Origin: Campylobacterota bacterium
Lineage (GTDB): Bacteria > Campylobacterota > Campylobacteria > Campylobacterales > Sulfurovaceae
NCBI GenBank assembly: GCA_034722955.1
Contig: JAYEOM010000093.1
Span: forward strand, 1-37,100
DNA length: 37,100 nucleotides
Direction of reading: 5' to 3'
Shown: positions 15,001 through 18,000 of the stretch, piece by piece
Layout of the letters: every line of letters starts with the position of its first letter
Position numbering within the stretch: position 1 is the stretch's first letter
Made by a program: the position numbers

Positions 15001-18000
15001 CCATCAAGTCAGTTGTTAAGTAGCAGCCTAACTCTCTAAGTAGTTTGCCACTGCATCTTCGTCGTTGGTGTGTGGCAGTATGATGTCTGCTCTCTCTTTG
15101 ACCTCATCTAGAGCATTTTGTACCGCTATAGCTGTGCCTGCTTTTTCAAACATCCCTAGATCATTGATACTGTCACCAAATACAGTAAAGTCCCTCAACT
15201 CTCTACCTAGATACTCTGCTACTGTCTGCAGGGCATGGGCTTTGTCTCCGTCTGGGTGCAGGATGGTGAGGAAGTAGCCATTTGAGTACTTTTCTGGGGA
15301 GAGTTTGTACTCTAGTTCATCACCAAAAATTACTCTGAAGTGTTCTGTGAGCGGTTGTAGTGTTTCGTGATCTCCGAAGTAGACTAGCTTGAGGTTCATC
15401 TCCATGGCTCTGATCTCTCTGCACTCCTGCATGCGCGGATCATTTTTGTAATTATCCAGTACACTGTTTTGGTGTGAATTTAGTGTAGTTGGAAATAGAA
15501 ATGCCTCATTGAGCTCCATATCTCTCAGAGCAATGATGAAAGGGTATATACCAAACTTCGCCCCCTCATCTATGATCGCATCTCCTAGTGCTTTGTTGAC
15601 TAGCTTGAGGTCAATAAGCTCTTTCTGGGGTGAGACGACCATGCTGCCATCGAGTAGTATCATCGGCGCATGGAGATGTAGTTTGTCTAGAAACTGGTGA
15701 GTTTTTGTATAGCTTCGTGCTGTGGCGACAGAGAGGGTAGCGTGCTTGGTTTTGTCATTCCAAACTCGTCTGCTAAAGCTGCTGACACTCTGGTCTGTTC
15801 TGAGAAATGTATGGTCAAGGTCGGTGATATATATAGGTTTCATGGCTAAGAGCTTGCTATCTTCTGGTCTATATAGTTTTGGATAAAATTTTTGACTTGA
15901 GTGTAGATAAATGAGTCTTTGTAGTTTTCGACTTTACCACCACTGGCATTGGGGTGTCCTCCTCCGTTGCCGATCTCGGCTGCCATCTTGGAGACATCCA
16001 TCTTGTCATTGCTTCTTAGTGAAAAGTGACCGCGAAAGTTGATATCCATATAGAAGTCATAGTCACTATTGGCGATGAGGAAAGCGTTGCCGATGAGTGA
16101 ACTGCTGCCGACATTGTAGCCTAGCAGCCCCTTGTATCCACGATACTCTATGGTGAGTCGTGCTTTTTCAGCGGAGAGGAGTTTGGTGACATAGGCAGCT
16201 ACTAGATTGTCTTTGGTGTCATTCTTCTCTGCTATGAAGAAGGCTTTTTTTGCAGGATGCACTGCATCATCGAGTTGGATATTTCCCTCCTTTTGAGTGA
16301 CAAGCGTGCGGGCTTTTTCTATGAGGCTGAGTTTGAGTGCTCTATCCTCCGCAGGAAATAGGATACGATTTACCTCTCTAGCACCAGAGATCATGCCTAG
16401 ACATACTTTTCCAAACTCAAAATACTCATCATCGCTCACCCAGATATCGATCGCATTTATCGCTTTGACAATTTGGGCATTATGGTTGTTACTGTCAAAA
16501 TCATAATGTTCTTGCAGCCAATCATAGGTGATCAGTGTCGCAGAGCGAGTGGTATCGAGCTTGTACCAAGCGAACCGTTGGGCTGCTTGTGCTCCTGTGC
16601 CATGGTGATCAAGAAGCTGAAGTTTGGCACCGATGCGTATCGCCTCTTTCTCTATCCAGTTCCCCTCTTTGGTCGTGAGGTTGAGGTCAGTTATCAAGAT
16701 CAAGTACTCTCGCTCCTCTTTGTGTAGAAATTTCTCCTGCTCTATCCTCTTGATCATCTCTTCGAGACGGGCTTTGACCTCTGGTCCATAGTTGGCATTG
16801 TAGCATTCGATCTTCTCAAAGCATTGTGTCGTTAGGTATTGGCAGCCATATCCATCGAGATCGATATGGGAGAGGTGATATAGATGTTGCATTATAAAAT
16901 ATCCTTAAGTGTTAGACTATATAGAAAATCGTCTATTTTGTCTTGAAATTTGTGCAGAAAAGGGGATATAGAGCATGTCCCGATAACACCACTCGGACAT
17001 GAACCTATATATTGTGTACAGTCCAAAACAGCAGGAGGTTTTCCCTCCGCAGCAGTAATAACACTATAGAGGGTTATCTCTCCCAAGTCTTTTGTGAGGA
17101 GAAACCCCCCATGTGCACCTTTTTTGGATTCGAGTATACCTTGTTTTGCCAAGCTTTGCATAATTTTTGCTAAAAAACTCTTGGGTATATTGAGATTGTT
17201 TGCAAGTTGCTCTGCCCCGACTGGTTTATCTGATTTGCGTATCTGATCTAGTGAGAGCAGGGCATACTCACTTGCTCTTGTTAATAGCATTGAAATCCTT
17301 CTTTACTAATTAAGAGAATTTTACTCTTATTAAATTAAAATAACGAGGTATACTCTCTATACATGATCAATAATATTTTTTTGCCCCTATTTAGCCCATC
17401 TTTATATTTTCGTGATAAAATTACGGTTCCAATTCCAATCAGTGTATTAGAGGTACCCTTTATACATTGATATAGAAAATTCAATTACCGATCAGGAGGT
17501 CACTATGGCTTTGGATAAGGCGAAAAAACAAGAGATCATTGAAAAATACTCAAGAGGCGAGAACGATACAGGTTCTACAGAAGTTCAGGTAGCAATATTG
17601 ACAGAGAGAATCATCTATTTGACAGAGCACCTGAAGATCAATAATAAAGATCACTCTTCAAGACTAGGTCTTTTGAAGCTTGTAGGACAGAGAAGAAGAT
17701 TGATGAGATATCTCAGAAAAGTTGATTTGACTCGCTACAATACCATCAAAGATGCTCTTGCTATCAGAAACTAATACAACTCTCTCAAGATTGCCTTCGG
17801 GCAGTCTATAGACTATATACTACTAATATTACTACTTACCCTTATCTCCATCATCAAAAATCTACTATATGTCACTATCTTAATTTGTAAAATTTTAAAT
17901 ATCAAATATACCTCAATTATATAGAATATAATGTAAGGAATAGAATACTTTAGTCTGTTTGACTAAACTTTATTGTGAAAATATTAAAAAAGACTTGACA

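Follow-up and report, generated by a model that had tools for sequence, protein, structure and literature searches.

Which DNA site is read by the Rrf2-family regulator that is encoded beside rpsO in Campylobacterales, and which genes are under its control? The question is raised by a locus in the window, the whole 37,100-nt stretch of DNA that was analysed, in which a palindromic box precedes an rrf2 gene. Sequence comparison gives a well-supported prediction of the operator and core regulon of this uncharacterised, order-wide Rrf2 subfamily.

The regulator and its locus

The rrf2 gene (16892..17290, minus strand) encodes a protein of 132 amino acids with Glu8, Cys91, Cys98 and Cys106, assigned by family models, a fold match to RsrR, IscR and NsrR, and a dimer model. 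A ribosome-binding site can be read off the sequence at 17296..17300 (minus strand), and a 25-bp palindrome (17308..17332, no strand) lies 17 nt before the ATG. The genome-wide survey's note had reported this gene and a box at this distance, and both are as it described them. The palindrome, a predicted autoregulatory operator, has one mismatch to AAWTARGA-N9-TCYTAWTT and scores 27.8 bits (26.4 bits in leave-one-out scoring). A candidate -10 hexamer of the rrf2 promoter, TAAAAT (17318..17323, minus strand), found by pattern match only, lies within it.

The stop codon of rrf2 overlaps the start of a DHH/DHHA1-family gene (15846..16892, minus strand), which is followed after 2 nt by a gene for a Cof-type HAD hydrolase (15028..15843, minus strand); both were named by family scan. 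The DHH gene is probably co-transcribed with rrf2, and the hydrolase gene is possibly on the same transcript. Divergent from rrf2 is rpsO, encoding ribosomal protein S15 (17505..17774, plus strand; family scan). The DHH gene adjoins rrf2 in all 80 loci compared and rpsO does so in 76 of them. The distance from rpsO to the rrf2 box is 172 nt, and rpsO is probably not a target of this box. A profile search of the genome, which is 99.97 % complete, returned rrf2 as its sole Rrf2 match. Most of the closest relatives of the protein, at 78-86 % identity, come from records of Sulfurovaceae or Sulfurovum; the source genome is therefore not a Campylobacter, the genus in which the regulator had been placed.

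Elsewhere in the window, a perfect sigma-70 consensus promoter was seen at 17995-18024 before grpE-dnaK (18089-20547). The ferrous iron transporter gene feoB (26285-28402) has no strong box. A cluster at 5449-11654, with NamZ, an amidase, a sodium:solute symporter and further genes, presumably resembles peptidoglycan recycling. No Rfam families were found in the 37,100 nt.

The protein belongs to the Rrf2 superfamily according to TIGR00738 (99.2 bits, cut-off 73.3) and PF02082 (100 bits), and a fold search found the winged helix plus dimer helix. RsrR is its best solved match by sequence and by fold (E 5e-12, TM ~0.8): Glu8, Cys91 and Cys106 align with the RsrR ligands Glu8, Cys90 and Cys110, and Cys98 is extra. 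All 107 orthologs have the three cysteines, spaced CX6CX7C in 98 of them. Among 30 aligned rows the FLAK residues of the recognition helix are invariant and Glu8 is nearly so, family f13 being the exception to Glu8. Ligand residues are also common further away, with Glu or Asp at position 8 in 101 of 114 distant relatives. In a tree built without a RisR sequence, 17 orthologs and six other proteins were placed on one side of the starred branch (100/97), with two paralogs apart. Two orthologs are aberrant. The one at L361 (G146) is frameshifted by an apparent short duplication, which may be an assembly error, and the one at L127 (G036, family f13) lacks Glu8 and has an altered helix start.

The modelled dimer scored 0.81 (best control 0.01) and passed the mark, which 20 of 30 solved pairs but also 1 of 23 single chains attain; as this is the textbook Rrf2 dimer, the pass may reflect the model's memory of solved dimers. 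At least 95 % of the contacts agreed between runs, with pLDDT of at least 88. In the model Glu8 faces residues 89 and 108 of its partner subunit, next to Cys91 and Cys106. A cluster would be ligated by Cys91, Cys98, Cys106 and the Glu8 of the other subunit.

The box and its targets in the source genome

The pattern AAWTARGA-N9-TCYTAWTT has 6 exact matches in the genome, with 0.05 expected, and 10 matches at one mismatch or fewer. Reversed and half-swapped controls each gave 0 exact and 2 one-mismatch hits. Spacers of 5-8 and 10-13 nt instead of 9 gave 0 exact and 0-2 one-mismatch hits. The six exact matches, set against 0.05 expected and none for the reversed control, bear out the earlier view that the box is a real signal. 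A scoring matrix was built from the 10 sites of this genome, which score 25.9-34.6 bits; the next site in the genome scores 18.2. At position 9 of the half-site, G and T occur as well as C. The circularity of such a matrix was countered by leave-one-out scoring, in which the sites score 22.2-33.4 bits and all stay in the top 10, and by out-of-sample scoring of genes of relatives (see below).

A palindrome of this composition could also be a mere by-product, arising from AT-rich promoter sequence together with -10 hexamers and AGGAG ribosome-binding sites. A -10-like hexamer indeed lies inside the rrf2 box, and the tenth strong site (C34:38942) runs across the start codon and ribosome-binding site of a DUF3817 gene, as it does in two of three orthologs. 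However, the 9-nt spacer is strict, the distance from box to start varies from 12 to more than 200 nt while the targets are functionally coherent, and the maximum over ten column-shuffled matrices was 18.6 bits, whereas the ten sites all exceed 25. Genomes that lack the regulator moreover have no box at these genes. The by-product explanation is thus largely refuted and highly improbable for the set as a whole. At C34, the DUF3817 site, it may still apply, and this one site may be either real or such a by-product.

Target names were taken from family scans, which covered 58 of the 99 fetched open reading frames. Besides rrf2 and the DUF3817 gene, strong boxes precede nifS-nifU, tpx, napA, acsA, an Nfu-type gene (divergent partner DUF805), a [2Fe-2S] ferredoxin gene (divergent operon with hemerythrin-domain and DUF2249 genes), a psrA/phsA-type molybdoenzyme operon and a desulfoferrodoxin-family gene. 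The 12 best upstream scores indeed belong to the targets named in the survey or to their divergent partners. Desulfoferrodoxin was listed there as a target; the strong box was found, and the protein is a single-domain one of 127 amino acids. Weaker sites were seen at folE/tig (18.2 bits), thiC-apbC (13.5) and ccoN (13.4). The ccoN site, proposed as a weaker target, is lineage-specific at best. The genes rpsO, DUF805, tig/folE and the C34 antitoxin gene were considered as targets and are taken as neighbours of boxes only.

The ahpC gene had been counted in the regulon as well. Its box scores 6.1 bits here, against a background of 71 positions above 5 bits and 29 above 8, and among relatives only 3 of 19 genomes with the rrf2 ortholog reach 15.8 bits, while one without it has 11.3. 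It was rejected as a conserved target and is lineage-specific at best. In this genome ahpC is directly followed by a PerR-like gene in the same orientation (G000:C7:15834-16801, L287) and may be mainly under PerR. A second NifS-like protein (G000:C15:2118-3326) has no strong box before its gene. A CiaB-family gene (805 bits; G000:C20:18862-20730, L011) was also observed in this environmental-type genome.

The position of the box relative to the promoter differs between targets; the -10 and -35 calls are pattern matches, and a generic sigma-70 scan is ill-suited to these promoters. The box covers the predicted -10 of rrf2 and the predicted -35 region of tpx, the desulfoferrodoxin-family gene and nfu. 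It lies at the predicted start site of the ferredoxin gene and psrA, and by eye of nifS. The boxes of acsA and napA lie upstream of the predicted -35, a placement at which they could be activating.

Box and regulator across Campylobacterales

The 100 nt ahead of rrf2 contain a box of more than 14 bits at 42 of 45 Sulfurovaceae-type loci, 35 of them exceeding 20 bits (one further locus, lacking upstream DNA, was left out); none of 43 control windows does. The earlier statement that, among 30 loci, only this genome has the full box before rrf2 is thus wrong. None of 34 Arcobacteraceae-type loci has such a box, and four further families have partial sites at a distance of 15-30 nt from the rrf2 start. 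The Arcobacteraceae-type loci L095-L125 have another conserved stretch ~135 nt before rrf2, between rrf2 and rpsO, which might belong to the promoter or leader of rpsO.

The presence of the box also follows that of the regulator at the level of genomes. Of 221 genomes of the order, 189 have an rrf2 ortholog, 29 gave no match, and 3 with weak matches (E 1e-6 to 1e-5) were counted as lacking it. The exact box occurs in 123 of the 189 genomes with the ortholog versus 1 of the 32 without; the reversed control occurs in 9 of the 221. Family f25 makes up 24 of the 32 genomes lacking the ortholog, the rest belonging to f24, f3, f21, f13 and f18, so that the number of independent losses is small. With genomes so closely related, nominal P values overstate the association. 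The exception is G078, an assembly of 180 contigs with a rearranged rpsO, in which 3 boxes and no ortholog were found. No exact match is present in 66 of the 189 genomes. Variant boxes account for part of these, but gave no clear answer for families f13, f14 and f16 and the genomes G019 and G137. Loosening the pattern to 23 bp made it too unspecific to decide G137, G039, G019, G037 and G048. A family-level search around G026 returned G026 alone. Family f13 has boxes in 2 of 12 genomes and the gene is absent from some of its members, which suggests that its regulon has changed or is decaying.

Single target genes were scored out-of-sample with the matrix of the source genome. A box precedes nifS in 15 of 17 genomes with the ortholog (12.9-23.3 bits, 12-39 nt from the match start) and in 0 of 13 without it, none of which exceeds 1.0 bits. 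The two exceptions are G137 and G036, in which NifS is only 46 % identical. For tpx, 18 of 19 genomes with the ortholog score at least 17.4 bits and one scores 10.6, while 0 of 9 genomes lacking it have the box (none above 5.4); two genomes without a tpx match are not in this count. These nifS and tpx counts support the proposal of a regulon of Fe-S assembly and peroxide defence.

A wider view of the regulon is given by the pattern matches listed in relatives, a subset picked for spread over families that contains a few duplicates. Of these 111 site rows 88 were assignable, and 63 lie before genes for Fe-S assembly, ferredoxin or defence against reactive oxygen species, or before rrf2. Boxes were found at 14 nifS loci, 12 desulfoferrodoxin-family loci, 11 tpx loci, 8 ferredoxin loci, 6 apbC loci, 5 sufB loci and 4 loci of the hemerythrin operon. 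Three loci each were seen for selO, napA, thiC and a Crp/Fnr-type gene, two each for psrA, ccoN and nifU/nfu, and single loci for sufE, acsA, sodB, porG, flavodoxin, nifH, nirB, trxA and nnrS. At three Arcobacteraceae-type loci, sufB diverges from nifS or nifU with two boxes in the space between them, and one site at a hugZ/TonB-receptor locus was found, in G128. The data support Fe-S assembly and peroxide/superoxide defence as the conserved, predicted regulon. The respiratory arm (napA, psrA, ccoN and acsA) is seen mainly within the family of the source genome. In G023 (L264) a box-like site lies 4 nt before nnrS, near a second Rrf2-family gene; a different regulator may use it, or it may only match the ribosome-binding site.

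Families f11 and f25 are, by inference, the Campylobacteraceae and the Helicobacteraceae. The exact pattern occurs in 7 of 25 genomes of f11, nifS has a variant box in 6 of 7, placed after its predicted -10 and ahead of its ribosome-binding site, and the box precedes rrf2 in none of 4 loci. As at Cj0883c, the f11 orthologs are followed by a long membrane gene, which we take to be flhA. Cj0883c (CJJ81176_0891) is given as the single Rrf2 protein of C. jejuni (PMC9973013 Table S2). In the passages available from three papers, the gene is catalogued as a motility gene in a virulence list (PMC12197775), its motility defect is attributed to a polar effect on flhA (PMC4073491), and it has a row in a colonisation table (PMC5438104); these passages give neither targets nor a site.

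These patterns bear on the question which protein binds the box. PerR, Fur or an orphan response regulator might be the binder, with rrf2 merely one of the targets. The targets do overlap oxidative-stress regulons, nifS of H. pylori is described as being under Fur and oxidative-stress control (PMC4541418, in part), and the rrf2 box is missing from the Arcobacteraceae-type and f11 loci. However, a Fur-family gene is present in all 32 genomes tested, and in 10 genomes with neither Rrf2 nor the box a gene is retained that fits PerR best among the families, though on partial sequences and at scores under the curated cut-off. The distribution of PerR and Fur is thus not that of the box. The box follows the presence of Rrf2 and has Rrf2 geometry. 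The worry that PerR might share the targets is weakened by the same 10 genomes, and another binder is quite improbable. Most probably, then, the box serves the Rrf2 protein as its operator; that this protein binds it can be predicted with high confidence.

Proposed mechanism and known Rrf2 regulators

We propose that a homodimeric winged-helix Rrf2 protein binds AAWTARGA-N9-TCYTAWTT and that each subunit would carry an Fe-S cluster, probably [4Fe-4S], on Cys91, Cys98 and Cys106 and on Glu8 of the partner subunit. On or just after the promoter, the cluster-loaded dimer would repress transcription; oxygen, peroxide or iron shortage would lead to loss of the cluster, and the assembly and defence genes would be released together. 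Such a negative feedback would be RisR-like, with Nif and Suf assembly genes both controlled. As the comparison of genomes shows, the conserved targets are the assembly genes nifS-nifU, sufB, sufE, nfu and apbC, together with tpx and the genes for a [2Fe-2S] ferredoxin and a protein of superoxide-reductase type. The regulator gene stands alone, apart from its targets, and is predicted to be autoregulated in Sulfurovaceae and not in Arcobacteraceae. We put the probability of this model as a whole at roughly 70 %. The psrA, napA and acsA sites are unexplained by simple feedback and may reflect binding of both forms or activation; psrA and napA encode enzymes that themselves consume Fe-S clusters, and simple feedback would not have the holo form repress them.

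The same protein and box could also serve another signal, oxygen, redox poise or NO, as in RsrR or NsrR, or both apo and holo forms could bind, with activation at some sites. RsrR is the closest solved protein, with a near-identical recognition helix, the ligand set is NsrR-like (PMC9218516, in part), and boxes occur at napA, psrA, ccoN, Crp/Fnr-type genes (3 loci), selO (3) and single nirB and nnrS loci. Yet the RsrR ligand His12 is Leu here and the third Cys is invariant, none of the 10 strong sites in the source genome precedes a gene annotated for NO detoxification, and the most conserved targets are the assembly genes, Nif and Suf. We consider this alternative unlikely.

Control of Fe-S supply under oxygen stress matters in Campylobacterales, whose key enzymes carry oxygen-labile clusters, and the regulator suggests how low-oxygen bacteria may adjust to oxygen damage. 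In C. jejuni the Fe-S assembly genes appear essential (PMC4257069). No description of the site or regulon was found in the open-access literature, the search leaving most subscription papers and the regulon databases outside its scope. A review of respiratory regulation in the phylum does not contain the terms Rrf2, IscR or NsrR on term look-up (PMC6682613). Surveys of gene neighbourhood miss this regulator because its gene adjoins rpsO. A named regulator, a predicted operator and a target list are now at hand for culturable Arcobacter, Sulfurospirillum, Sulfurovum and Campylobacter, and a possible function is offered for Cj0883c.

More tentatively, and doubtful when all its parts are taken together, the protein might be an order-wide, independently recruited oxygen/Fe-S sensor of microaerophilic Campylobacterales. 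It would tie assembly and peroxide/superoxide removal to the respiratory route chosen, through nitrate and polysulfide reductases, cbb3 oxidase and a Crp/Fnr-type cascade, and would act as a repressor at some boxes and as an activator at others. Cj0883c would be a reduced version of it, in charge of the essential iscS-nifU operon, and where the regulator was lost, control of nifS would have passed to Fur.

IscR of E. coli is autoregulated, has 25-bp sites and reaches into respiratory genes. The present protein is predicted to share these traits, and it resembles IscR in its Rrf2 fold, three cysteines and predicted control of Fe-S assembly and nfuA-type genes. As for IscR, boxes are predicted before Fe-S assembly genes and before the regulator's own gene, the latter not in all families; unlike iscR, the gene does not lie within an isc operon. 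The IscR equivalog cut-offs are not reached (47.7 versus 207.55 bits and 40.5 versus 275 bits). IscR has Ser40, Glu43 and Gln44 where Ser, Ala and Lys are aligned here, Arg8 instead of Glu8, and the helix SYLEQL instead of SFLAKI. The IscR motif Cys-X5-Cys-X5-Cys-X2-His (PMC9218516, in part) also differs from CX6CX7C, which has no His three residues after the last Cys. Membership of IscR was rejected, as scores, ligand motif and recognition residues all fail. Of the label "IscR-type" used in the survey, function and 25-bp geometry are retained, whereas the protein itself fails the tests of score, His ligand and Glu43-type residue.

RsrR of Streptomyces venezuelae shares the 11-3-11 repeat and the near-identical recognition helix. 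Such repeats are described as typical full Rrf2 sites, and the RsrR targets lie in NAD(P)H and glutamine metabolism, unrelated to the targets found here (both PMC5015018, in part). The [2Fe-2S] cluster of RsrR has Glu8, His12, Cys90 and Cys110 as ligands; the protein was not placed in RsrR, in view of Leu in place of His12 and the invariant third Cys. NsrR has a comparable ligand set, an acidic residue 8 and three Cys, around a subunit-bridging [4Fe-4S] cluster (PMC9218516). NsrR was rejected at 22.7 versus 182 bits, with targets other than NO detoxification. The scores are far under both the NsrR and the RirA cut-offs, and no iron-uptake targets were seen except the hugZ/TonB-receptor site of G128.

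The closest functional parallel in design is RisR of Myxococcus xanthus, from Rrf2 subgroup IS6, which PMC9973013 describes as a three-Cys protein, probably with a [4Fe-4S] cluster, whose holo form represses isc and suf. Its footprinted site, Tt/gGAC-N7-GTCCt/a with AT-rich flanks, covers -10/-35 regions (PMC9973013, in part). The GAC-N7-GTC core matches many of the present boxes, which precede both nifS and sufB. The cysteines of RisR are spaced differently (C92, C102 and C108), and its gene adjoins Fe-S genes (both PMC9973013), whereas the regulator here adjoins rpsO. The available tables of that paper file the proteins of C. jejuni, Sulfurimonas and Nitratiruptor under "Rrf2-others" and not under IS6 (PMC9973013 Table S3), and contain no Rrf2 of H. 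pylori. Membership of RisR/IS6 was rejected on this placement and on the location beside rpsO. Beyond RisR, the predicted regulon adds tpx, superoxide reductase, ferredoxin and respiratory genes. The best reading is that the proteins form a separate Rrf2 subfamily that would work like IscR and RisR and belong to neither, a further case in which Fe-S homeostasis has independently recruited a regulator of the Rrf2 family.
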